64,000 nucleotides of DNA from Bacillota bacterium (GCA_040751775.1 JBFMGD010000008.1:15431-79430); one strand, 5' to 3'. Numbered from the stretch's first letter, positions 4,681 through 62,922 are shown. A program made the numbers and translations. The notes: generated by a model from the letters alone, not told the origin.

Positions 4681-6522
4681 ATGCTGTTGCGTGTGATCAT
4701 TATAGAGGATTCAGAAGATGATACACTGCTGTCGGTGCTTGAGTTGAAAAAGGGCGGGTATGAACCGGTACATATTCGTGTAGAAACAGCCGAAGAGTTG
4801 CGTAAAGCCTTGCGGGATGACAAATGGGACTTGATTATCTGCGGTCATGCTCTGCCCCGCTTCAGCTTTCCTGAAGCCCTGGCGGTACTCCAGGAAAGCG
4901 GCCGAGATCTTCCGTTTATCGCTGTCTCAGCCCTGAAAACCGGCGCCCACGATTTGATTACGAAAGAAAATTTATCCCATCTTACCCTTGCAGTGGAACG
5001 GGAACTGCGTGACGCGGCGTTGCGGGTTGAGTACAGGCGGGCGGAGGAGAGGTTGCGGGAAAACGAGGCGGTCTTGGCAGCGCTTTACCGGAACGCGCCG
5101 GTGATTATGATGCTCCTCGATCAAGAGAGAAAAGTATCTAAACTGAACACTTTTGCCGCCGAATTCACGGGTCAGTCGGCCGCAGAGATGACCGGCATGC
5201 GCGGCGGTGAGACGCTGCATTGCTTGCACTGGTATGACGATCCGGCAGGATGCGGATTCGGACCGGTTTGCCGGCAATGCATGTTGCGTCAAACCGTGAT
5301 CGATACATTTGAAACAGGCAGGAGCCATGACCAAGTAGAGATCAATTATCCTGTGATGATCAAAGGTAAAGTAAAAGAAGCATTTTTCCTTCTATCAACC
5401 GAGAAACTGGTCATCGGAAATCAACCGCGAGTACTGATCTGTTTGCTGCATATTGCCGAGCGTAAGCAATTGGAAAAGGCTCTTAGGACAAGCGAAGCCC
5501 GGTTCCGGTTACTTGCCGAAAACGCCAAAGATATCATCTTTCGGATAGAACTTCTGCCACAAATACACTTTAATTATATCAGTCAAGCGGTCAGTGCTAT
5601 TCTTGGCTACGCCCAGCAAGAGATATATAATAATCCTGCCTTGATCCAGGGAATAATTAACCAATCGTTGCAAGGTTTTGACTTTTCAAATTCAGACTTT
5701 TATGTTAAGCCCTTTGTCTTTCAGTGCAGGCATAAAGACAATAGCGATGTATGGTTGGAGCTGTATCTTTCGCCGTTCTTTAACGATGCGGGTAGACTGG
5801 CGGCAATTGAGGGAATTGCGCATGATGTAACCGAACGCGAGTTAAAAGAAAAGCAACTTAAATCCAGCTATGCCAAAATTGAAGCGCTATCCAATCGCAT
5901 TTTGAGAGCGATGGAAGAGGAGCGGGCTCGTTTGGCCAGGGAACTGCACGATGAAGTCGGGCAAGCTTTAACCGCGGTCAAGCTTGATCTGCAGCTGCTC
6001 AGCGATGAACTGTCAGCTTTTCAAAGGCAAAAGGAGAAGCTATTAAACAGCATTGAGTTGGTCGATACAACCCTGCAGCTTGTTCGCCGGCAATCGGTAT
6101 CACTGCGGCCTCCTGTCTTGGACGACATGGGGCTTGAGTCTGCGATACGGGAAATGGCCCGTGGGTTCAAGAATCGGACAGGCATTCAGACTATTATTAG
6201 GGTGCACGGTTTTCCTAAAAGACTGCCGCGTGATATGGAAACCGCGCTCTATCGCTGTGTCCAGGAATCCTTTACCAATGTGGCACGCCATGCTAAAGCG
6301 ACGAAAGTGACAGTTGATCTAATACTAATTCCTGGAGTTTTATCGATTAGAGTAGAGGATGACGGCATTGGCTTTCAACCCGACGAATTGACCATATCGC
6401 CGGACCACATCGGCCTTACAGGAATTCAGGAAAGAGTGAAACTGCTCCGGGGGAAGATCGGCATAGAATCCGGAGATGGCCGGGGAACCAGGATTGTGAT
6501 CACTGTACCCTGGCATGTATAA
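4681..6522 (+). CDS. Hybrid sensor histidine kinase: N-terminal receiver, 2x PAS, HisKA_3, HATPase_c
   Basis: MLLRVIIIEDSEDD receiver start preceded by a GAGGAG RBS, so the ATG at 4681 is preferred over the tool's 4621. H-box ELHDEVGQALTAVKLDL (NarL-class). ATPase lid VEDDGIGF. Confidence 0.85.
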   Translation: MLLRVIIIEDSEDDTLLSVLELKKGGYEPVHIRVETAEELRKALRDDKWDLIICGHALPRFSFPEALAVLQESGRDLPFIAVSALKTGAHDLITKENLSHLTLAVERELRDAALRVEYRRAEERLRENEAVLAALYRNAPVIMMLLDQERKVSKLNTFAAEFTGQSAAEMTGMRGGETLHCLHWYDDPAGCGFGPVCRQCMLRQTVIDTFETGRSHDQVEINYPVMIKGKVKEAFFLLSTEKLVIGNQPRVLICLLHIAERKQLEKALRTSEARFRLLAENAKDIIFRIELLPQIHFNYISQAVSAILGYAQQEIYNNPALIQGIINQSLQGFDFSNSDFYVKPFVFQCRHKDNSDVWLELYLSPFFNDAGRLAAIEGIAHDVTERELKEKQLKSSYAKIEALSNRILRAMEEERARLARELHDEVGQALTAVKLDLQLLSDELSAFQRQKEKLLNSIELVDTTLQLVRRQSVSLRPPVLDDMGLESAIREMARGFKNRTGIQTIIRVHGFPKRLPRDMETALYRCVQESFTNVARHAKATKVTVDLILIPGVLSIRVEDDGIGFQPDELTISPDHIGLTGIQERVKLLRGKIGIESGDGRGTRIVITVPWHV

Positions 6523-7618: not shown

Positions 7619-9985
7619 TTGAAAAGTCCTGTATTTATTGAGTTTTCAAATAGCGGCTGTCAAAGTTCAGGATTAATGTCCACATCGGGAAACGAGGGTA
7701 GTTTTTTGATGGAAAACCCGGCTTTTTTAAAGATCTTTGGCTTTAAGAGCAAAGAAAAGCTTCAGAAATTAATGGAGATCGATCCATACGCTATGCCTGA
7801 TGATAGGAAAGCTTCTTCCGATCATTTGAAAAGGCGCGGAAAAGTAAGCGGTATAGAGGTGAAATTAAAGAATAAAGACGGCACTCCGTGTTGCTCGGTC
7901 ATGGCAAGCTGTGTCTATGACGAAAATGAGAATGTAGCATATTACGATTGCACTATTGACGATATTTCCTGTCACAATAAGGCCGAAGAAGAGTCAAAAG
8001 CCAGGGATGCTTTACTGAAAAAGTTGTCTGATCGGGTACCGGGTGTGATTTATCAATTTCAATTATTCCCAGACGGCAGGTCCTGTCTTCCCTATGCCAG
8101 TGATGGGATCGGCGATATCTTTGAAGTTACCCCTGAGGAAGTTCGTGAAGATGTCACTGCAATTCTTCAACGGCTGCATCAAGATGATTACGAAGAGGTC
8201 AAAAAATCTATCTTGGAATCCTTTAACACTTTACAGCCGTGGGAATACAGTTTTCGAGTTATTTTGCCCAAAGGCGGCGAAAGGTGGTTAAACGGCCGTG
8301 CGGTTTCTGAAAAGTTGGACGACGGAAGCGTTCTATGGCATGGATTCATTGCCGATATCACCAAGCAGAAGCGAGCGGAGGAAGAAATATGCTCTCGCAA
8401 TGAAGCACTTACAGCCCTTAACACTCTCTCGATCCATATGCGTCAAGCTAAAGGCACCACCGATTTGTTGCCTATCGTGCTGGGTAAAGCCCAGAGTTTG
8501 CTACAAACCGAAAATGGAATGGTGATACTGCTTTTGCCGGACCGGAAGCACTTTACGATCGCCTTTGGTAATGGGCATTGGAGAGATATGGTTGGTCGGA
8601 CCTTCCCTTTCGAAGAGGGACTGAGCGGTAACGTCCTGCACATCGAAAAGACATACGTAAGTACGAATTACAGTGTTGAACCCCACGCTTTACCGATAAC
8701 TGATGCCGCCGAGATTGGTCCCATCATGATTGTCCCGATGTTTTCGGAGAAGGTGTTAATCGGAGCCCTGGCGGTCTCACGTAGTTTGACTCCAGAAAGC
8801 CGTTCCTTTACTTCTGCCGAGGTGCGGTTAATAGAGACGATCGGTGAAATGGCCGGTAATGCCCTGTGCCGCCAGCGACTCCACGAAGACGCCCAGCGTC
8901 GTCTCAGGCAGACACAAGCGCTACGCAATATTGACATGGCTATCACAGGGAGCATTGATCTGCGCGTCACCTATAATGTAATCTTGGACGAAATCACCAG
9001 GCAACTGAACATTGATGCCGCCGCCATTGTAAAACTGGAGTCACATACCATGATGCTGAATTACGAGGTCTGGCGCGGTTTTTATACCACGGACCCTGCC
9101 AGTTTTCGCTTGCACATGGGCGAAGGTTATACCGGGCGGACAGCTTTAAATAAGCAAACATGCTTTATTTCTGACTTAAGTAAATCTGTGCTTGATTCAG
9201 CCCAGGGAAGATGGTTTTCTGATGAAGGTTTCTGCACCTACTATGCCGTTCCCCTCATTTCCAAAGGGTACATCCAGGGTGTCTTGGAAGTCTTTCACCG
9301 CAAAAAGTTCGATGCGGATGAAGAATGGATCAGTTTTTTGGATGTTTTGGCTAGTCAGACAGCTATCGCCATCGATAATGCGACCCTATTTCATAACCTC
9401 GAGCGTGCTAACATTGAACTGGTCCAATCCTATGACGCCACCATCGAAGGCTGGGCGTATGCCCTTGACCTCCGGGATGAAGCGACCGAAGGTCACAGTC
9501 AGCGGGTCACAAAGATGACCCTGGATTTATCCCAGCAGATGGATATAACGGAGAAAAGCCTGGCCTATATCAGGCGCGGGGCGCTGCTGCATGACATCGG
9601 TAAAATGGGCATCCCCGACTGCATTCTCCTTAAGCCCGGAAAGCTTACGGAAGAAGAATGGGTAATCATGCGCAGGCACCCCGAGTATGCTTACAAGATG
9701 CTCTCTTCTGTTGAATACCTGCGGCCTGCCTTAGATATTCCTTATTGTCACCATGAAAAATGGGATGGTACCGGCTACCCGCGCGGGCTTAAGAGCAAGG
9801 AGATCCCTCTTGCGGCTCGTATTTTTGCCGTCGTGGATACCTACGACGCGCTGATAAGTGAGCGCCCTTACCGGGAAGCATGGTTAAAAGAAAAAGCTCT
9901 TGCTTACATCCAGGCGCAAAGCGGTAGACACTTTGATCCGCTGGTAGTAGAAATGTTTATGAAGAAAATGGCGTTAGGGTGGTAG
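7619..9985 (+). CDS. PAS/PAS/GAF/GAF-HD-GYP cyclic-di-GMP phosphodiesterase
   Basis: C-terminal LLHDIGK and HHEKWDGTGYPRGL (HD-GYP signature). Upstream PAS and GAF sensor modules. Start codon uncertain (7619, 7676 or 7709). Confidence 0.85.
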   Translation: MKSPVFIEFSNSGCQSSGLMSTSGNEGSFLMENPAFLKIFGFKSKEKLQKLMEIDPYAMPDDRKASSDHLKRRGKVSGIEVKLKNKDGTPCCSVMASCVYDENENVAYYDCTIDDISCHNKAEEESKARDALLKKLSDRVPGVIYQFQLFPDGRSCLPYASDGIGDIFEVTPEEVREDVTAILQRLHQDDYEEVKKSILESFNTLQPWEYSFRVILPKGGERWLNGRAVSEKLDDGSVLWHGFIADITKQKRAEEEICSRNEALTALNTLSIHMRQAKGTTDLLPIVLGKAQSLLQTENGMVILLLPDRKHFTIAFGNGHWRDMVGRTFPFEEGLSGNVLHIEKTYVSTNYSVEPHALPITDAAEIGPIMIVPMFSEKVLIGALAVSRSLTPESRSFTSAEVRLIETIGEMAGNALCRQRLHEDAQRRLRQTQALRNIDMAITGSIDLRVTYNVILDEITRQLNIDAAAIVKLESHTMMLNYEVWRGFYTTDPASFRLHMGEGYTGRTALNKQTCFISDLSKSVLDSAQGRWFSDEGFCTYYAVPLISKGYIQGVLEVFHRKKFDADEEWISFLDVLASQTAIAIDNATLFHNLERANIELVQSYDATIEGWAYALDLRDEATEGHSQRVTKMTLDLSQQMDITEKSLAYIRRGALLHDIGKMGIPDCILLKPGKLTEEEWVIMRRHPEYAYKMLSSVEYLRPALDIPYCHHEKWDGTGYPRGLKSKEIPLAARIFAVVDTYDALISERPYREAWLKEKALAYIQAQSGRHFDPLVVEMFMKKMALGW

Positions 9986-10127
9986 CATAGGTTACTTTGC
10001 TAGAGAAACTCGGATCTGAAAATGGAGACATTTTATGCTTCACAACAATGTTTTCAATTAGCTGATGCTACAATTAATGGGGGCAAAAGGGTTGAGTAAA
10101 ATATTATCAGCATGGTTGTAACTGAAA

Positions 10128-10214
10128 GAACCAATGATTCTTCATGGACATAATATAAATCATGCTACACTTTCTGGTGCAAAGCCTGGATTAATCAATG
10201 TTGCACTCTATGAC
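10128..10214. repeat. Direct repeat copy A, first part (second part at 10421–10447, split by a ~206 bp insertion)
   Basis: About 85% identical to 12758–12844. Shared core agaaccaat[g/t]attcttc[a/c]tggacataatataaatcatgctacac. Confidence 0.75.
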
Positions 10215-10405
10215 TAAGGCGAGTATGATTATCGGCATTCTTGTAAATGCAGTTTCATTGACCAGGTAGAATGTCCTTGATGCTGTAAAAACATGGCTAG
10301 GTCGTGATTAAAGCGGTCGCGGCCGCTTACGGAAAGAGGATCGGCATTATTAAAAAAACCGGCTAGCTCTACATCGTGCAAAGTAAAGAATTAATTTGGC
10401 CAACA

Positions 10406-11043
10406 TCAAAAAGGTAAAGCCGCTTCTCTCTTAATAATTTCATCATTAAATTTATCATTGGGGCCAATTTCAAAGGTCTCCACCCCGTAGCCTTCTTTCA
10501 GTGTGCGGCGCACGTTGGAGCTGATACCCGATGCATCTGCAACCAGCCTTGCTGATAGATCAATAGTCTTATCATCCTGCTTCAGTTTCTTACCATGAAT
10601 CCTGCCGTCGGCATAGATAAAGTCTACAAACTCGGTACCGTATGCATACTCGACGCCAAAGCTTTCAGCCCACCCGGCCAGTCTCGCCAGAAATAGAGGC
10701 AGGTGCATTACGACAAAGGATAAAGGGTGCGCTTGGGATACCGGTCAAAGGCGGATTTACTGATGCCGTATTCAAATTCAGAGACATAATCTTCATCAGC
10801 AGTGGAGGGGGCAGGTACGCCAAACTTCTCAAACGCTTCTTTATCGATATGGAAAATGTCTAGCCGGCTGCCTAATTTCGCTTGGTCAGCCTTCTCCGCC
10901 ACCAAAACCTTGTACCCCTGTTCGGCCATCAGTTTGGCAAAATATGTACCGGCTGTGCCGGCGCCGACCACAATTAGATCATAATAGCTATGCTTCATCT
11001 CATAATCTCCCTGTGAAAACTTGTCGCGAACAAAGTATAGCAA
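10406..11043 (-). pseudogene. FAD-dependent oxidoreductase (geranylgeranyl-reductase-like), frameshifted at ~10708 and 3'-truncated
   Basis: N-terminal DLIVVGAGTAGT Rossmann motif in ORF 10708–11043. The continuation with the DASG motif is in a different frame in ORF 10406–10708. Total ~210 aa versus ~380 expected. Confidence 0.7.
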
Positions 11044-11467
11044 TATTCTGTATTAATTGTCAACTTGAATGTACCCAAAATATCCCAGGTATTTCCCCGG
11101 TTTTCCGATACTCTGAAATTTGTAGTATCGTCGTTCTGTCTGCAAGAGGCCGCACAGAGGGAGCTGAATTTGTGCATGATTAAGACCATTAACCTTCCTA
11201 CCGCAGATACACTAAAGTATAAACTGGAATCCGGTGATGTGGTTTTTGTTAAGAAGGCAACAAGCTTCTTTTCGACCCGATCTGTAAGCCAGTGTATCAC
11301 TGATTTATCGTACCTGCCCAAGACATTGGTTGGCCATAACCATCCTATTTGTAATATCCTCCGTCAATTATAAAAATTTTTCCAGTAATCCATGAAGCCT
11401 CTTCGCTAGCCAAGAACTTGGCGGTATCGGCTATGTCTCCCGGAGTTCCCAGTCTTTACTGGTTCGC

Positions 11468-12040
11468 TTATCCCGGAAAGGCGCTGTTGATTTTCGAAGG
11501 GTGACCACTTTTAACCTCGATGAGTATTATCCCATCTCCAAAGAGAATCCGCATAGTTATTACCAGTATATGTTCACAAACTTTTGGCGACCGGTTGGCA
11601 TACCCCTGGAAAATGTGAATATACCGGACGGCGAAGCCGCGGATACCGAGCAAGTCTGTCGCGTATATGAACAGAAAATCGCGCGGGCCGGAGGCATTGA
11701 TTTTATCGTATTGGGGATAGGCGGAAACGGGCATATCGGTTTTAACGAGCCGCAGGATCATTTAACCGCCGATACCCACCTGACCCATTTAAGCGAGGAG
11801 ACGATCGCGGCAAACAGCAGGTTTTTCGCGCGGCCGGAAGATGTCCCCAGGATGGCTCTAACCATGGGGATAGGAACGATTATGAAAGCGCGCGAGATTC
11901 TCTTGCTGGTCGCGGGCAGAGGCAAGGCCGATATTATTAAGAAAACCCTCGCCGGCGGGGTCAGGACCGATGTGCCCGCCTCCTTATTGCAGGTTCATCC
12001 GCGGGTTACGGTTTTGCTGGAAAAAGCGGCTTCCAGTTGA
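11468..12040 (+). pseudogene. nagB: Glucosamine-6-phosphate deaminase (NagB) 3' fragment, missing ~65 N-terminal residues
   Basis: …VDFRRVTTFNLDEY… matches the NagB TFNMDEY motif and the rest aligns to the NagB C-terminus. No upstream start or N-terminal domain. Confidence 0.7.
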
Positions 12041-12062
12041 CCATGAGATCTATAATTTAATC

Positions 12063-12215
12063 ATTCCTTCCCAGAGGAGATCTCTTCATCACTGCTTTCT
12101 CCGGTAAGAATACGAGCAATGTCGACGCCCTCTTTACGTAGGGCCGCCTTACGGTAGAAGTACCAGGCCATGCCCAGGGCTACGCAGGCCAGGTAGATTA
12201 GTGTTGACTCGATGC
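12063..12215 (-). pseudogene. 3' fragment of an unidentified membrane-protein gene
   Basis: Frame reading …MAAGISTSIESTLIYLACVALGMAWYFYRKAALRKEGVDIARILTGESSDEEISSGKE* has a hydrophobic helix plus a charged tail. It is fused upstream to an unrelated fragment. Confidence 0.3.
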
Positions 12216-12229
12216 TGGTGGAGATCCCG

Positions 12230-12400
12230 GCTGCCATGAACCAGGCAGCGGACTTGTGCGTCCTCCTTCACTTCCCGCATGACAGCGGAAAGTTCGGCCC
12301 AGGTTTCCCGCCGCACGGCGTTGAGCACCGCGGGACGGTTCAGGGTGATCAAACCGACCTGATCTTTGACAGTATAAGTAATGTCGTGTCTCTCCATCAA
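12230..12400 (-). pseudogene. Enoyl-CoA hydratase/crotonase 5' fragment (~55 aa)
   Basis: MMERHDITYTVKDQVGLITLNRPAVLNAVRRETWAELSAVMREVKEDAQVRCLV is a typical crotonase N-terminus. It loses frame before the oxyanion-hole motif. Confidence 0.6.
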
Positions 12401-12700
12401 TCAAACCTCCCCTTTCCGTAAAGTAGGCTTTATCGCGGGGCCGGGGCGCTCATCCGTTTTGCAGGATTTTACCGGGACGGCTCTCCCGGCGCGCCTAAGC
12501 TTTGCCGAGGAGCCGCCGGGCGTTCCCTCCGAGAATCCCTTCCTGATCTCATCGCTGAAAGGCCAGTGCTCCTTGATCTCGTCGATGCCGCGCTTCATGT
12601 CGAGCATCGGGGCGGCGGGTAACCCAACCCTGGATGTTCATACCGATGGCGCCCCATTTCCTGGCTTCGCGAAGCACCTCCACCGGGTCCGGGTCGACCT
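12401..12700 (-). pseudogene. Amidohydrolase-2 family fragments, paralogous to the intact gene at 62059–62922
   Basis: MLDMKRGIDEIKEHWPFSDEI… matches MLDMKRGIDEIREFWPLSDAV… at 62.9 kb. EVDPDPVEVLREARKWGAIGMNIQGW matches EVDPDPVAVLREARKWGAVGLNIQGW. There are internal deletions. Confidence 0.75.
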
Positions 12701-12757
12701 CACTATTTTATTGATTTATAACTGGTTCGCTTACGTCATACTACTGGTTGCTAAAAA

Positions 12758-12872
12758 AGAACCAATTATTCTTCCTGGACATAATATAAATCATGCTACA
12801 CGTTTTAGTGCAAAGTATAGATTATTCAAGGCTGACTCTATGACCGCTTCTTTCTTAATAATTTCATCATTG
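12758..12872. repeat. Direct repeat copy B (uninterrupted)
   Basis: See copy A. It ends 15 bp before the first glycosyltransferase gene. Confidence 0.75.
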
Positions 12873-12886
12873 TTGGTGATCAAGAT

Positions 12887-14080
12887 ATGAGTCGTTTAAC
12901 TCGGCCATCGATCTATGTTGTTACTCCCGGCACCTATCCAATACCGGCCAATCTGACCGGTTCTGTAGAGCTTTCGGTTATGCAGATATTCCCCTACCTA
13001 GCATCATCATATCAGGTTACTGTGATTGGGCGAAAGCAGCAGGGCGTCTTGCCTTCTTTAGATCATGTGGGATTGACGCGAAACCTTTATGTGTGCGGCG
13101 GAAAAGTTAATTTTGTCCAGATCCAGTCAACGATTAAGGATTACCCTGATCAATTGGCCCAACATCTTTCTCAGGGAATCAAATCAATTATTCACGTAGA
13201 AAACAGGCCCGCGTTGGTCAGTCGAATCAAAGAGCGCTACCCGCTATCTAAAATTTGGCTAAATTTGCACTCAATTACCTTTTTAGCGCCAGGCAAAAAT
13301 AATAACCATGATTTGGGTAATGCGCTTTCCCTTGCGGACAGAATTAGCGTGAACAGCGAGTTTTTGAAGCAGTATGTCTCTCATTTATTTCCCGCAATAC
13401 AACATAAAGTGTGGGTAAACTATCCTGGGGTCAACCATTTACATTATTTCCCTAGCTGTGAATCAAAAAATTATTTACGAAGAGGAACGGTTGCCGGTTT
13501 TTCTTCCCATGGACCGGTAATCCTTTATGTCGGCCGATTAAGGAAAATGAAAGGGGTTGATCACTTAATCAGGGCTTTCACCAGGGTCATCTCCGTTTAC
13601 CCATCTGCTCAGCTTTTAGTGATCGGGTCATCGGATTACACTGCTTATAAAGAATCAAGTTACACGCGGAGCCTGAAAATACTTGCTTCTTCATTGGGAT
13701 TGGAAAAGAACATCACCTTTAAGCCCCATACATCCGCCGATGAGCTGGTCAAGTGGTATCAGGTTAGCGATGTTTTTGTCTGTCCCTCGATTGTTAATGA
13801 AGCATTTGGGTTGGTTAACCTGGAAGCGATGTCATGTGGTATCCCGGTGATTGCATCTAAGATTGGTGGGATTCCGGAGGTAGTCGAGCACAATTATTCC
13901 GGTTTATTAGTCCCGCTTGATTACCATGAGGAGAGGTTGGCGGAAGCGATCCTCACTTTGGCCATGCATCCGGAGAGAGCCCGCCTTTTTGGGATGAACG
14001 GTCGTGTGAGAGTGCTTAATAAATTTACCTGGAAACACACGGCCGAGCGGTTAAAAAAGGACTATCAAGATCATTATTAA
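12887..14080 (+). CDS. GT4-family (GT-B) glycosyltransferase
   Basis: C-terminal EAFGLVNLEAMSCGIPVIASKIGGIPEVV (EX7E-type retaining GT4 motif). Confidence 0.85.
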   Translation: MSRLTRPSIYVVTPGTYPIPANLTGSVELSVMQIFPYLASSYQVTVIGRKQQGVLPSLDHVGLTRNLYVCGGKVNFVQIQSTIKDYPDQLAQHLSQGIKSIIHVENRPALVSRIKERYPLSKIWLNLHSITFLAPGKNNNHDLGNALSLADRISVNSEFLKQYVSHLFPAIQHKVWVNYPGVNHLHYFPSCESKNYLRRGTVAGFSSHGPVILYVGRLRKMKGVDHLIRAFTRVISVYPSAQLLVIGSSDYTAYKESSYTRSLKILASSLGLEKNITFKPHTSADELVKWYQVSDVFVCPSIVNEAFGLVNLEAMSCGIPVIASKIGGIPEVVEHNYSGLLVPLDYHEERLAEAILTLAMHPERARLFGMNGRVRVLNKFTWKHTAERLKKDYQDHY

Positions 14081-14110: not shown

Positions 14111-15679
14111 TTGATCAATGTGTCATTCTGTCATCAAAATATACCATTATACAGGCCGCGTTTATCTGTGGTTATACCGGCAAAAAACGAAGCAAAAACA
14201 ATAGAGAGAGTGATAATGGAAGCCGGATCAGTCACAGATAGTGCCGAAATTATAGTAGTCTGTAACGGCAGTAACGATCAGTCGGCCGACATGGCCCGGA
14301 AAAAGGGAGCCCGTATCATCTGGTGCGAAGAAGATCTTGGTTATGATGTAGGACGTGCTATCGGGGCCAAATATGCAAATGGGGAGATTATCCTTTTTCT
14401 TGACGCTGACTATGTTGTTCCGGCTTTAACTTTAAGAGAGCTTTATTTGGATGTAAAAAGGGGCTATGATGTTGTCTTAAATAAGTACTCGGGCTTTCGG
14501 TCCAGGGTAAAAATTCATGTCACCTCCCAGGCAAAGAGGCTGTTAAATAAATACCTGGCCAAGGACAATTTAATCGGTAGCTCCATGACCACCACCCCCC
14601 ATGCTCTCAGCAGGAGAGCCTTGGAAACGATCGGCTATCATGCCCTGGCCGTGCCACCTTTAGCTTTGGCGAAAGCGGCCCTAAATCAATTGAAGATCCA
14701 CCGTTCGGCCAGGATTGATGTCGGCCGGTTCAACAAACGAAAGCCGAATCGAGAAGAAGTAAAAGACTTAATCATGGGGGATCATGCTGAAGCCATCGCG
14801 TATCTGATCCGGAAGAAGGGGATCAGAGGAGGCTTTGCGGACTTCCAGCGGCACCGCGAGGTTCTTGATCTGATTGAGCATCATGTAACGAGAATCAATG
14901 ATCAAGATAATGGACGCGCAAACAATGACTGTTTAAATTTATCGGTAGTCATACCGGCGCTTAATGAAGAAAAAACAATCGGTCCTCTGATAACAAATCT
15001 CAAACAGTTGCGGCCCAAAGAAATTCTGGTTGTTGAAAATGGTTCCACGGACCAAACATTACGGGTTTGTTATAACCATGGTGTAAAGATTTTATCTTTT
15101 ACCAGCCCGCTTGGCCATGATGTCGGTAGAGCGATCGGCGCCAAAGAAGCAAAGGGAGATTATATCCTTTTTCTCGACGGCGATATTATTTTCACCCCGG
15201 AAGAGTTGAGACCCTATGTGAACTTTTCTAATTGCGGCGCCGATATTCTGTTGAATAATATTAACCCTTTTTTTATGCTGTCTTCCATGATTGATTATAT
15301 CAGTATGGCGAATGCTCTGCTTAACAGTGCTTTATCCTTGCCTCAGCTGCAGTATTCTTCACTTACCTCAATCCCCCATGTGATACGCCGGTCGGCTGTT
15401 AACCTAATCGGTTTTCAAAACCTTGCCGTTCCCCCCAAAGCACTGGCGATCGCCGTGCTAAAGGGACTGAAGATTCAGCAAGCGGCCGGAATTAACGTAC
15501 TGGTTAGAAACCCTGTCAGGGAGCACAACAGGCGCAAAAAAAATAAAATCGAGGAGCTAATCCTGGGAGACCACCTCGAAGCGATTGAGCATGTCCAATC
15601 AGTGATCGGGAATCGCTTATTCCTTCCGGATACCAATCGCCGGCGGTACTTGATCGATCATGAATGGAAGATAATGTAA
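14111..15679 (+). CDS. Tandem-duplicated GT-A glycosyltransferase (two GT2/GT81-like domains in one chain)
   Basis: The two halves align: LSVVIPAKNEAKTI…LGYDVGRAIGAKYANGEIILFLDADYV versus LSVVIPALNEEKTI…LGHDVGRAIGAKEAKGDYILFLDGDII, and LAVPPLALAKAALNQLKI versus LAVPPKALAIAVLKGLKI. Confidence 0.8.
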   Translation: MINVSFCHQNIPLYRPRLSVVIPAKNEAKTIERVIMEAGSVTDSAEIIVVCNGSNDQSADMARKKGARIIWCEEDLGYDVGRAIGAKYANGEIILFLDADYVVPALTLRELYLDVKRGYDVVLNKYSGFRSRVKIHVTSQAKRLLNKYLAKDNLIGSSMTTTPHALSRRALETIGYHALAVPPLALAKAALNQLKIHRSARIDVGRFNKRKPNREEVKDLIMGDHAEAIAYLIRKKGIRGGFADFQRHREVLDLIEHHVTRINDQDNGRANNDCLNLSVVIPALNEEKTIGPLITNLKQLRPKEILVVENGSTDQTLRVCYNHGVKILSFTSPLGHDVGRAIGAKEAKGDYILFLDGDIIFTPEELRPYVNFSNCGADILLNNINPFFMLSSMIDYISMANALLNSALSLPQLQYSSLTSIPHVIRRSAVNLIGFQNLAVPPKALAIAVLKGLKIQQAAGINVLVRNPVREHNRRKKNKIEELILGDHLEAIEHVQSVIGNRLFLPDTNRRRYLIDHEWKIM

Positions 15680-35933: not shown

Positions 35934-36120
35934 TAAGTTCTCTCCTTCTGTCTAAAACGGATCGTTAATTCCACAACAGTTTTATGTATTATATGAACCG
36001 GTATAGCCATAATGTCACGGTTGAAAGCATATCCCCATACAATAGAACCAGGGTCAGATTTTGATAGACGAACGTATGCTCATGAAGATAGATTAGTTAT
36101 TGGGGGTATCATTGCACATT

Positions 36121-38076
36121 ATGAAAAAGTGGCTGGTTACCGGGGGGGCCGGTTTCATCGGCTGCAATATGGTTAGGCTGACCATCGCGCAAGGCGGCGT
36201 CCGTATTGTTAACCTCGATAAACTAACTTATGCGGGATGCCTGGAGTCCCTGGCTTCCATGCAAGGCAGCCCCGACCATATTTTTGTCCATGGCAGTATT
36301 GAAGACAAATGTTTGGTCTCGGAGCTGTTAAACAAGTATCAGCCTGACGCGGTGATTAACTTTGCTGCGGAAACCCACGTCGATCGTTCCATCGACGGCC
36401 CCGCGGAATTTATTCAGACCAATATCGTTGGGACGTTCGCACTGCTGGAGGCCGTCCGGGAATACTGGGAGAGTCTGCAAGGTGAACAACGAGATTATTT
36501 CCGTTACTTGCAGATTTCCACGGATGAGGTGTACGGCTCCCTTGACGCCGCGGGATATTTTTCCGAGCAGAACAGGTACGATCCGCGCTCGCCTTATTCC
36601 GCCTCCAAGGCGTCCGCGGATCACCTGGTGCGCTCTTATCACCACACCTACGGTCTGCCCGTGCTAATTACCCATTGTTCTAATAATTACGGCCCCTACC
36701 AGTTCCCGGATAAGCTCATTCCCCTCATGCTGATGAATATTCTTGAGGAAAAACAGCTGCCGGTGTACGGGGACGGGGAAAATGTCCGTGACTGGCTTTA
36801 CGTGGAAGACCACTGCCGGGCCATCCGGAGAGTGTTGGAGCGCGGCCGCAGCGGTGAGTCTTACAATATCGGCGGCAACAATGAAAAAACCAACATTCAG
36901 GTGGTTAATACTCTTTGTGAGTTATGTGACGAGCTGCTGCCGCGCCGGGACGGCCGGAGCCACCGCGGGCAAATCGTTTTCGTGCCGGATCGTCCCGGCC
37001 ATGACCGGCGTTATGCCATCGATGCCGCTAAAATTAAGCGTGAACTGGGTTGGGAGCCTGTGGAAACGCTGGAAACCGGGATGCGCAAAACCGTGGATTG
37101 GTATCTTGATCACAGGGAATGGTGCCGGCGTGTTTGCGCCGGAAAATACGGCGGTGAGCGCCTGGGCCTGGGCCGCCCGGCTCCGCAGGCAAAAAAGAGA
37201 TTAAAAAAAGGGATCATCCTGGCCGGCGGTAGCGGCACCAGGCTTTACCCGCTAACCGCGATCCTAAATAAGCACCTCATGCCGGTTTATGACAAGCCGC
37301 TAATCTATTATCCCTTGACCACCCTGATGCTGGCGGGAATTACGGAGATCCTGGTGATCACTACCCCGCGGGACCGCCGCCTTTTCGAGGAGCTGCTTCA
37401 AGACGGCAGCCGGTGGGGGATCAGTATTCATTACGCGGAGCAGCCCAACCCCGCCGGCGAGGCGCAGGCTTTCCTGATCGGGCGGGAGTTCATCGGCCAT
37501 GATCGCTGCGCGCTAATCCAGGGGGACAATATTTTTCACGGTCACGATCTCGCCGCTTGTTTACAGGAGGCCGCGGCACAAGAAGACGGAGCCACGGTGT
37601 TTGCGTACCGGGTCACGGATCCGGAGCGCTTCGGCGTGGTTGAATTTGACGCGGCAGGCAAGGTCTTAAGCATTGAGGAAAAACCTTTAAGGCCCAAGTC
37701 GAACTATGCCCGGATCGGACTTTTATTTTTTGACAACCAGGTCGTTGGGATGGCCGCCGGCCTTAAACCGTCAGCCCGCGGTGAACTGGAAATGACCGAT
37801 CTTAACAAGCTCTACCTGCAGCAAGGTCAATTACGGGTGAAAAAACTGGGCCAAGGTTTCGCCTGGTTTGATGCAGGCACCCGCCAATCACTGTTGGAGG
37901 CGGCCGTTTTTGTCGAAACAATAGAAAAGTGCCAGGGAATCAAAATTGCCTGTCCGGAGGAGACTGCTTACCGCCTGGGGCTGATTAGCGCCACGCAGGT
38001 GGCAAGGTTGGTTGAACCTTTACAGAAGAACGAATACGGTCAATATCTTCTCAATCTTGTGCAGGGGGTTGATTAA
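36121..38076 (+). CDS. rmlBA: Fused dTDP-glucose 4,6-dehydratase (RmlB) and glucose-1-phosphate thymidylyltransferase (RmlA)
   Basis: N-terminal [16 protein letters not shown]…[12 protein letters not shown] is RmlB. After a KRLKK linker comes [16 protein letters not shown]… (RmlA). The ATG at 36121 is preferred over the TTG at 36100. Confidence 0.85.
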
Positions 38077-40507: not shown

Positions 40508-41267
40508 GTGTTATTTTATGCCCGATCCTTTTTGAGGTGCACTCAGCACAATCTGGTATACGCTAAGCTGATCAAACATATGGGAAAAGAAAAAGCCCGG
40601 CAGTATGCTGAAGCCAATGAATATGCCATTATCTTTATCAAGGAGTTGATTAATCAAAAGAAGATCGACTGTGACTTTTCAAGACAAGCGGCATATGTAT
40701 ATACTCAGTCCGAAAAATACATAAAGCAAATACAAAATGAGGTAGAAGCTGCTTTAAGCCTTGGAATTAAAGCAGCATATATTGAGCAGTTGCCTCTGCC
40801 GTTTGAGATAAAGGCGGCTGAACGTTTTGACAACCAGGCCCAGTTTCATCCCCGCAAGTATTTATTGGCGCTGGCAAAGGAAATACCGGGAGACGGCAGC
40901 CATATATTTGAACAAACCAGGGCGGTAGATTTTCATAATCGAGTTTGCTCAAGAAACATTTGATTACCTGGATATGCCGTTTAGATGGTCAACGCAAGAT
41001 TATACAACCCTGGACGATATTCCTTACGTGGGTAATATAACTTCAAAAAGCCCCAACGTGTACGTAGCCACCGGTTTTAAAAAATGGGGAATGACCAATA
41101 GTACAGTTTCCGCGATCTTGTTAAAGGACTTGATCGTGAAAGGCGAGAGTCCCTGGGCGCCGGTCTATGATCCCTCCAGATTTGAGGGAGATCCCATGAT
41201 CAAAAATTTTGTGAGTATTAATGCCGATGTGATTAAGCATTCAATCAAAGAGGGCATAGAGATTTAG
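40508..41267 (+). pseudogene. DAO-family FAD-dependent oxidoreductase, N-terminally truncated and frameshifted (two fragments)
   Basis: 40508–40963 has the middle region (…FHPRKYLLALAKEI…) and 40974–41267 the C-terminal region (…YVATGFKKWGMTNS…). No Rossmann N-terminus. Confidence 0.6.
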
Positions 41268-61887: not shown

Positions 61888-62058
61888 ACGGTTCCCTCCC
61901 CATAAGTCATTATAACGTAGACTACTTTTTTTGCAAAGCCGCAGGCGCCGCTGTCAAATGGGCCGCTGTAAATATCTTTCCTTTCCACGAGCTTGAACAG
62001 GAGATTTGGAGAATGGATCAGTTCGCCCGAATTATATCTAATAAGGAGGTTACGGCCA

Positions 62059-62922
62059 ATGAGTTATGTTGACTTCAGGGTGCTGATACCGCCCAAAGAA
62101 CAGTTTAGCGCCCTTTCGGAACAGGCAGCACCGGCGTATATGGAAAACTATATAAAAATGTTTGGCATCGATCTCTCCGAGTGGGTTCAGTATATCGGTG
62201 TTCCTGAACTGCTTGCGGAAATGGACCGCTCCGGGGTAGACCTGGCTGTGGTCCATGCCGAGATGAATTGGGGCCATATCAGCCGAGAGCTGAATGAAGC
62301 GGCCCGGGCCAGCGTGGCCCAGGCTCCTGACCGACTGGTGGGGGTGGTGACGATCGATCCCGAGGTAGATCCGGATCCGGTAGCAGTGCTGCGCGAGGCT
62401 CGCAAATGGGGAGCCGTCGGCTTGAATATCCAGGGTTGGGTCTACCAGCGCCGCATTAATGATCCTTATTTTTATCCCGCATACGACTATCTGCAGAAAC
62501 ACGATATGATTCTTTTCAGCCATACCGCTGTAAATTACAGCACCGACCGGTATATAGAATATTCACGGCCGGTCTACCTGGATATGATCGCCTGCGATTT
62601 TCCCAAACTGAAGATCGTGGCCATGCACGGTGGTTGGCCATGGGTAAACGAGCTCTGCGCTGTCTGCTGGAAACACAGCAACGTTTACTTCGAATTCGGC
62701 GGCCACCGGCCCAAGTATTTAATCAACCCCGGTTCGGGCTGGGAGACGCTTTTCAATTACGGGCGTAAAATCTTAAGTGGGCAAATGCTTTATGCCACCG
62801 AATGGCCGATGCTCGACATGAAACGCGGCATCGACGAAATCAGGGAGTTCTGGCCGTTAAGTGACGCTGTTAAAGAGGGGATTCTCGGTAAAAATGGCTT
62901 GAGACTGCTCGGCAGGCTCTAA
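62059..62922 (+). CDS. Amidohydrolase-2 (PF04909-type) family metal-dependent hydrolase
   Basis: ATG at 62059 after AAGGAGG, preferred over the tool's 61993. …VVHAEMNW…HTAVNYS…AMHGGWPW… TIM-barrel hydrolase motifs. Confidence 0.75.
   Translation: MSYVDFRVLIPPKEQFSALSEQAAPAYMENYIKMFGIDLSEWVQYIGVPELLAEMDRSGVDLAVVHAEMNWGHISRELNEAARASVAQAPDRLVGVVTIDPEVDPDPVAVLREARKWGAVGLNIQGWVYQRRINDPYFYPAYDYLQKHDMILFSHTAVNYSTDRYIEYSRPVYLDMIACDFPKLKIVAMHGGWPWVNELCAVCWKHSNVYFEFGGHRPKYLINPGSGWETLFNYGRKILSGQMLYATEWPMLDMKRGIDEIREFWPLSDAVKEGILGKNGLRLLGRL

Follow-up and report, generated by a model that had tools for sequence, protein, structure and literature searches.

A probable rearrangement scar between two copies of a putative SigK-type promoter at the edge of a glycan cluster in an uncultured Bacillota lineage

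Introduction

Gene remnants at the junctions of polysaccharide clusters, degraded by serial deletions, have been read as footprints of recombination or replacement (PMC3715488). The remnants of O-antigen and capsule clusters usually derive from glycan genes, such as wzy and abe, or from insertion sequences (IS) and H-repeats, and lie inside the cluster. They are the closest described phenomenon to the locus considered here, which lies in a 64-kb stretch of DNA (the window) from a metagenome-assembled genome (MAG) of a Bacillota bacterium (GCA_040751775.1 JBFMGD010000008.1:15431-79430). Truncated gene pieces are found here too at the boundary of a glycan cluster, in a patch located between a signalling gene of the HD-GYP type and the first glycosyltransferase of the cluster. 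However, they come from unrelated metabolic genes and lie outside the cluster, and, unlike the O-antigen and capsule remnants, they include no trace of an IS, while the scar contains what is probably a duplicated promoter/leader region.

The cluster itself resembles the spore polysaccharide (sps) and cotSA loci of Bacillus, with which it shares rml genes, UDP-GlcNAc 2-epimerases, a CapD/Polysacc_synt_2 dehydratase and many glycosyltransferases, a CotSA-like first gene, and SigK-type motifs at operon starts. In contrast to the Bacillus loci, it belongs to an uncultured Bacillota lineage, its gene order is different, and the putative promoter occurs twice, with one orphan copy. Two further systems are relevant for comparison. 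Islets bounded by attL and attR sites are likewise discrete blocks between imperfect direct repeats of ~100 nt, whereas no integrase, tRNA target or mobile-element gene is found in the patch, and its repeat coincides with a putative promoter/leader. In addition, skin and SPbeta-spsM are inserts flanked by direct repeats at mother-cell spore-envelope loci and are excised in the mother cell. The likeness of the patch to these intervening elements is only positional, however, as no gene is interrupted here (repeat copy B provides a complete putative promoter, leader and gene) and no recombinase is encoded.

A patch of gene fragments without an intact gene

The patch, which extends over positions 9986-12886 and is the longest stretch of the window without an intact open reading frame (ORF), is best explained, with a probability of roughly 0.6, as a scar of rearrangements that has no function and marks the left edge of the cluster, composed of eroded gene chunks and two copies of a promoter/leader region. 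It is a real, yet ordinary, scar of recombination and decay. The fragments were identified by Pfam and NCBIfam profile searches together with alignments (Table 1), and all recognisable genes of the patch cover their profiles only in part, as is characteristic of pseudogenes. This agrees with an earlier description made from the sequence alone (the sequence-only reading), according to which no intact gene lies between the HD-GYP gene and the first glycosyltransferase. Truncations take away 20-80% of each gene and, thus, the correction of sequencing errors cannot restore them; the case that the sequence-only reading had considered fatal to itself, namely intact ORFs after such correction, does not arise. 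These truncations, along with a deletion of ~350 bp, are disabling lesions beyond what sequencing error can produce. Moreover, the only two 1-nt frameshifts, both of them single-base deletions, fall within the patch, and the other 49 ORFs of the window are undamaged. The recognisable coding remnants, ~1.6 kb in total, contain no in-frame stop and only three indels.

The sequence-only reading had listed a frameshifted and truncated geranylgeranyl-reductase-like gene, a nagB without its 5' end, the head of a crotonase gene, amidohydrolase pieces, and the tail of a membrane-protein gene. Profiles and alignments bear out the first three, and the amidohydrolase pieces also stand, through a paralogue in the window alone. 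The supposed membrane-protein tail does carry one hydrophobic stretch, although neither a homologue nor a family could be assigned to it. The list was also incomplete, since the tail of a short-chain dehydrogenase (SDR) gene at 11345-11455 had been overlooked.

The reductase fragment carries one 1-nt deletion (a frameshift) near 10720. In an alignment with nine homologues, its homology stops after the residues ...FEIGPNDKF (nt 10448), where the family goes on with YVILRY... and the window reads NDEIIKREAALPF*; at the DNA level, homology to the contig L006 (78%) ends at 10449. As this limit is the right edge of repeat copy A, the repeat tail is not reductase sequence. The proposal that the repeat forms the coding 3' end of the reductase, in which NDEIIKREAALPF had been taken for the end of the reductase-like fragment, is thus ruled out by the nine homologues and by the DNA of L005 and L006. 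On its other side, a GGGAG ribosome-binding site lies between a sigma-70-like promoter match and the start of the reductase, which suggests that the fragment has kept its native 5' region. The closest reductase homologue on a long contig (L005, positions 4930-6303) is itself split into ORFs of 188 and 174 amino acids (aa), probably by a sequencing frameshift, the contig having a coverage of 3x; it adjoins bofA, a DUF2508 gene and recR, a context unlike that of the window.

The nagB fragment consists of 195 codons without a stop or a frameshift. Part of it (11501-12040) is annotated in the source MAG as a protein of 179 aa (P0142, 99% identical over 179 aa), which is most likely a missed pseudogene call. 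For annotation purposes, nothing in the patch merits a call as a functional gene, this 179-aa 'NagB' of the source record included.

The amidohydrolase remnant has no Pfam match and shares 61-83% amino-acid identity with the intact paralogue in three blocks. Compared with the latter, it has lost the first ~123 codons, carries the internal deletion of ~350 bp at 12611/12612, and contains a 1-nt frameshift near 12535-12550. The patch is not a tandem duplicate of the right flank of the window, as the paralogue is inverted, only ~80% identical, and followed by an acyl-CoA synthetase gene instead of a crotonase gene. As for the remaining pieces, the ORF tail at 12061-12237, the segment splitting repeat copy A and the interval 10999-11344 have no detectable relatives in Pfam, NCBIfam or PHROGs. 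The unexplained peptides (those of this segment, of both strands of 10999-11347, of the membrane tail and of the repeat ORFs) were also concatenated and searched against 5.8 billion proteins with no result at E <= 10, a search whose sensitivity may be lowered by the X-linkers.

The joints between the pieces are abrupt. Microhomology amounts to ~3-4 nt at the amidohydrolase deletion, a few nt at most at the SDR/nagB joint, and no more than 2 nt at the repeat/reductase joint (<=6 nt overall). Within the patch, however, not every boundary is a joint. The SDR stop is followed by a spacer of 345 nt, which holds the strong sigma-70-like promoter, and then by the reductase start, and the amidohydrolase stop is followed by a spacer of 91 nt with a GGGGAGG ribosome-binding site and by the crotonase start. 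Both pairs look like native neighbours. In turn, nagB and the ORF at 12061-12237 are convergent, with stops 20 nt apart. Given the retention of native spacers, promoter and ribosome-binding site, the pieces are not all independent, as had been supposed, and three chunks suffice to account for them, namely 10448-11455, 11453-12237 and 12238-12701. The abrupt joints, together with a broken gene at each of the two borders of the cluster, look like the outcome of deletion or illegitimate recombination at the border of a cluster that was acquired. Thus, the earlier view of the patch as a scar of repeated illegitimate recombination or insertion holds in so far as it is a scar, with abrupt joints, no intact gene and a broken gene at the other border, while repeated insertion as such is not demonstrated.

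The direct repeat and its SigK-type promoter motif

The imperfect direct repeat that had been reported to bracket the patch is confirmed and lies well outside what chance would give. A repeat search pairs 10125-10203 with 12756-12834 (86% identity) and 10420-10447 with 12844-12871 (96%), and a gapped alignment from which the insert was removed defines copy A as 10113-10214 plus 10420-10447 and copy B as 12745-12871, with 113 of 126 positions identical (90%), three to four small indels, and a total length of ~127 nt. A core of 60 nt gives a BLAST E-value of 2e-16 against the window, and a 25-mer common to both copies occurs exactly twice in the window (0 expected). The repeat is judged to be non-coding, since the positions at which the copies differ by substitution are not biased towards third codon positions in the long frame of the plus strand.

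The insertion reported to split copy A is also found and measures 205 nt. It has a weak similarity to the neighbouring repeat sequence (P = 0.02-0.06), and no array was detected by TRF. A loosely conserved motif, (G/T)ATTATC(A/G)GCAT, occurs at the left edge of copy A (10102-10117) and twice in the insert (10227-10242 and 10336-10351), and its spacing of 109-125 nt hints at a degenerate local duplication. The insert may be a product of such a duplication; alternatively, a deletion in copy B could account for the difference. Another short match links the left side of copy B with a joint inside the patch: the 13-mer ACTGGTTCGCTTA is identical at 11458-11470, the 5' breakpoint of nagB, and at 12721-12733, in the spacer of 43 nt to the left of copy B (~0.1 occurrences expected by chance).

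Beyond the window, a 20-mer from the repeat core has no match in the GTDB representative genomes, the JGI metagenome contigs or IMG/VR, and the repeat is undetectable in the contigs L001, L003 and L004. The region upstream of the nearest orthologue of the first glycosyltransferase (in L004, 56% aa identity) compares with the repeat at P ~0.03, with only 64 nt available to compare. A scan of positions 9000-14000 with Rfam models at E <= 1 yielded no match on the repeat, and predicted folds of both copies on both strands are no better than those of shuffled sequences (z-scores from -0.9 to +0.6).

The published pattern of SigK promoters consists of a -35 element AC and a -10 element CATA---TA separated by 16-17 nt (PMC4750369, PMC3789822). 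The repeat carries AC-N17-CATAATATA, the form found across the cluster being AC-N16/17-CATANNNTA, and both copies contain the -35 AC and the -10 CATANNNTA at a distance of 16-17 nt. The -35/-10 motif is identical in the two copies, and the most conserved part of the repeat, in which they agree over 25 nt, includes ACcaat(g/t)attcttc(a/c)tggaCATAataTA. Six such motifs are present in the window, a number close to the expected 4.0. Five of the six are either in the repeat copies or at correctly oriented sites that precede the operon starts at 36100, 40429 and 33712 by 28-99 nt. The motif is found in 4 of 24 upstream non-coding zones (0.1 expected), and none of 1000 composition-preserving shuffles reached three; moreover, all four zones are among the nine inside the glycan cluster, and none is among the 15 outside it.

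From this placement we infer that the motif functions as a promoter of the SigK type. Repeat copy B would then probably be the promoter of the first cluster operon with a leader of ~90 nt, and copy A its orphan duplicate. In B. subtilis, the sps loci are SigK-dependent (PMC7439481). This dependence, together with the placement of the motif, the first glycosyltransferase's homologues named 'spore coat protein SA', and the gene content of the cluster, indicates that the cluster is probably expressed in the mother cell and makes a spore-surface glycan. The presence of a SigK-type motif at all four detectable promoter positions of the cluster therefore predicts that this uncultured Bacillota lineage builds a glycan on its spore surface. 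The only points that are mildly new are that the repeat bracketing the patch would represent a duplicated promoter/leader of the SigK type, and that the cluster as a whole appears to be part of the sporulation programme.

The probable ancestral neighbourhood of nagB

Two related contigs, L001 and L003, were located via their HD-GYP proteins (61-64% identity). Both contain an intact nagB-glmM pair 1.7-3.4 kb downstream of the HD-GYP orthologue, after further signalling genes and on the strand opposite to it. In L003, the pair belongs to a run of four genes, the other two being a glmU-like gene and an unidentified ORF, and, of all proteins encoded in this contig, the window shares only HD-GYP-domain matches and nagB. 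The chance that a piece of that very gene should adjoin an HD-GYP gene is ~1%, by a rough estimate. Since two relatives have nagB close to their HD-GYP gene, the nagB piece is likelier to be a relic than an insertion, probably one left in place from the ancestral neighbourhood. Sequence identity by itself is no proof of orthology here: the fragment is 55-56% identical to nagB of L001 and L003, and the best representative nagB in a library of 1.84 billion proteins, other than the ORF of the source itself (P0142), is 52% identical.

Formation of the scar and alternative explanations

Under the preferred reading of the patch as a rearrangement scar, approximately three chunks (SDR-reductase, nagB with the convergent ORF, and amidohydrolase-crotonase) would each have been cut back and joined to the next one, through deletions or illegitimate joining events that involved hardly any microhomology. 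For the nagB chunk, at least, a native origin at this locus is probable, and much of the patch would likely be eroded native DNA rather than a collection of many separate imports. Copy B would serve as the working SigK-type promoter of the glycosyltransferase, with copy A stranded beside the HD-GYP gene. Two paths could have led to this arrangement. In one of them, a tandem duplication from the middle of the reductase to the end of the leader would have been followed by a deletion of the interior of the first copy, a sequence of events that would give exactly the two novel joints defining copy A (10447/10448 and 10112/10113). In the other, two diverged leader alleles would have been joined when the cluster was acquired or exchanged. 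The repeat copies may also predate the decay of the fragments, for instance if copy A formerly served as the promoter of a gene now lost by deletion. The order of events is inferred.

Several points weigh against this explanation. The joints were judged from the assembly of a MAG alone, and none of the relatives compared exceeds 85% nucleotide identity to the source. The SigK motif is short, with eight specified bases. The strand of nagB relative to the HD-GYP gene is opposite in the relatives, so that an inversion must be assumed, and, at 55-56% identity, the genes of L001 and L003 do not stand out clearly from many other nagB genes in their closeness to the fragment. Furthermore, the repeat copies differ by 10% and by three to four indels in 126 nt, as against three indels in the ~1.6 kb of coding remnants, and this divergence, set beside the freshness of the fragments, makes a recent duplication of the repeat in situ hard to reconcile. 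The explanation also does not account in detail for the origin of copy A.

An unlikely alternative is that the two repeats enclose 2.3 kb of filler DNA, taken from another part of this genome or from a different one and captured by one or several illegitimate insertions into the promoter/leader. The mixture of unrelated pathways on both strands and the abrupt joints would fit such a patchwork, as would the base composition, since the G+C content of the pieces ranges from 42% to 63% and that of the amidohydrolase remnant (63%) departs from that of its intact paralogue (52%), of which the remnant is a diverged relative and not a copy of the local gene. Nevertheless, this spread falls within the normal range of the window (mean 0.50 +/- 0.05, maximum 0.64), the chunks keep their native promoter, ribosome-binding site and spacers, nagB lies close to the HD-GYP gene in two relatives, and no donor was found among plasmids (blastn with the whole patch), phage families (PHROGs) or viral contigs. 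About as doubtful is the possibility that the repeat is a portable sporulation promoter/leader module, serving as a homologous anchor for the exchange of spore-surface glycan cassettes between lineages, in analogy to the JUMPstart region and the conserved flanks of O-antigen loci, with copies A and B as resident and incoming alleles and the patch between them as flanking DNA co-transferred or trapped in one or more cassette swaps. If the copies were indeed such alleles, the locus would illustrate how a spore-coat glycan cluster is swapped. More improbable than either is that the copies are the attL and attR sites of a small integrative element or of a Campbell-type circle, whose integrase and cargo have since disappeared. 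Integrative islands typically have direct repeats of similar length at their ends, and direct repeats of ~127 nt do flank a discrete block of 2.3 kb here. However, no signature of an integrase, recombinase, transposase, phage or plasmid is present in any frame (Pfam, NCBIfam, PHROGs and homology searches), no tRNA or tmRNA gene lies in 9000-14000, and the repeat does not correspond to the 3' terminus of the reductase gene. The content of the block, moreover, is pieces of metabolic genes of the housekeeping type, the repeats are 10% different, and their core is absent from the three public collections mentioned above. An IS, a miniature inverted-repeat transposable element (MITE) or another transposon was rejected: there are no terminal inverted repeats at the ends of the block, only two copies of the repeat occur in 64 kb, and the core 20-mer is missing from the same collections.

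That the patch is an artefact of assembly, in which reads of several organisms or strains were stitched into a chimera and the repeat copies represent strain variants of one intergenic region, is very improbable. The source being a MAG, with a contig of 82,112 nt, would allow for it, the 90% identity of the repeats is of the order of strain or species variants, and the G+C content shifts from piece to piece. Nonetheless, short-read graph assemblers generally join sequences only through shared stretches of k-mer length, and microhomology at the joints does not exceed 6 nt; hence, the joint at the amidohydrolase deletion, with its near-zero microhomology, must be carried by real reads. In addition, the rest of the contig is clean (the 49 intact ORFs), the frameshifts are confined to the patch, and similar decay has occurred independently at the right border of the cluster. 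The least probable explanation, although close to the preceding one, is that the patch is under selection as a functional remnant, with copy A as an active sporulation promoter for a non-coding or antisense transcript or for the 179-codon nagB' ORF. The identity of the -35/-10 motif and of the 25-nt core in both copies, the low share of mismatches in the promoter part (3 of 13) and the 195 open codons of nagB', annotated as a protein in the source, could be taken in its favour. However, the mismatches do not cluster significantly (permutation P = 0.08), copy A is followed by neither a ribosome-binding site nor an ORF, and nagB', which lacks the ~44 N-terminal residues of the fold, lies ~1.3 kb away from copy A past antisense fragments.

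Limits of the glycan cluster and other features

The patch marks the left limit of a glycan cluster of ~27.8 kb (27.5 kb over the span 12887-40429), and a second broken gene marks the right limit. Both borders coincide exactly with the two largest non-coding gaps of the window. The right-hand gene is a remnant of a DAO-family oxidoreductase; like the amidohydrolase remnant on the left, it has no 5' end, and the missing ends of both face the cluster. One event, an insertion or a replacement, in which both gene starts were lost along with a divergent promoter region would fit this symmetry. No repeats common to both termini of the cluster were found. The reductase half on the left and the DAO fragment on the right are not the parts of one split gene, as their orientations are incompatible, their profile ranges overlap, and they belong to different families.

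Table 1. Coordinates of the features of the patch, the repeat, the SigK-type motifs and the flanking genes, in positions of the window
Feature	Position	Strand	Evidence and remarks
PAS-GAF-HD-GYP signalling gene, intact, left neighbour of the patch	7619..9985	+	Pfam HD_5, GAF, PAS; orthologues 61-64% identical in L001 and L003
Repeat copy A, head (putative promoter part and first half of leader)	10113..10214	+	repeat search, BLAST, gapped alignment
SigK-type motif ACcaatgattcttcatggaCATAataTA, copy A, orphan, no gene downstream	10130..10157	+	motif scan
Segment splitting copy A, 205 nt	10215..10419	.	no homologue; weak likeness to neighbouring repeat sequence
Repeat copy A, tail	10420..10447	+	27/28 identical to 12844-12871
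FAD-dependent geranylgeranyl-reductase-like oxidoreductase, N-terminal ~185 codons of ~450 aa	10448..10998	-	profiles, homologue alignments
Sigma-70-like promoter TTGACA-18-TGnTATACT, 11/12, upstream of reductase start	11034..11063	-	motif match
SDR, C-terminal 36 codons and stop	11345..11455	-	adh_short_C2 positions 202-235/236, E = 3e-9; many NCBIfam SDR models
nagB (glucosamine-6-phosphate deaminase) without first ~44 codons	11453..12040	+	TIGR00502 positions 52-244/259, E = 3e-69
ORF tail of 58 codons, one hydrophobic stretch	12061..12237	-	no family, no homologue
Enoyl-CoA hydratase (crotonase), first ~55 codons, own ribosome-binding site	12238..12400	-	ECH_1 positions 3-45; NCBIfam enoyl-CoA hydratase positions 1-55 of ~260
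Amidohydrolase_2 remnant, native stop kept	12492..12701	-	tblastx/blastn against paralogue 61993-62922
AT-rich spacer holding 13-mer ACTGGTTCGCTTA	12702..12744	.	blastn within window
Repeat copy B	12745..12871	+	ends 15 nt before start codon of first glycosyltransferase
SigK-type motif ACcaattattcttcctggaCATAataTA, copy B	12761..12788	+	99 nt upstream of glycosyltransferase start codon
GT4 glycosyltransferase, opens the glycan cluster	12887..14080	+	homologues named 'spore coat protein SA'
SigK-type motif upstream of operon start 33712	33767-33740	-	motif scan
SigK-type motif upstream of operon start 36100	36017-36044	+	motif scan
SigK-type motif upstream of operon start 40429	40538-40512	-	motif scan
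DAO-family FAD oxidoreductase pseudogene, right border of the cluster	40508..41267	+	profile positions 54-176 then 313-352; no N-terminus or middle part
Intact amidohydrolase paralogue, PF04909	61993..62922	+	~79-84% nucleotide identity to remnant in best blocks

A few other observations concern the surroundings of the patch. Within the coding sequence of the HD-GYP gene, an Rfam match to mir-723 at 9139-9192 (33 bits, against a gathering score of 63) is a chance hit of a eukaryotic miRNA model. In the cluster, the first glycosyltransferase is identical to MEW5784269.1. The ORF at 14111-15679 encodes a protein of 522 aa with two GT2 glycosyltransferase domains in tandem. Farther downstream, a single ORF of 658 aa (36100-38076) combines a domain of the dTDP-glucose 4,6-dehydratase type (GDP_Man_Dehyd/Epimerase) with a nucleotidyl transferase domain of the RmlA type, and this fusion is followed by rmlC-like and rmlD-like genes.

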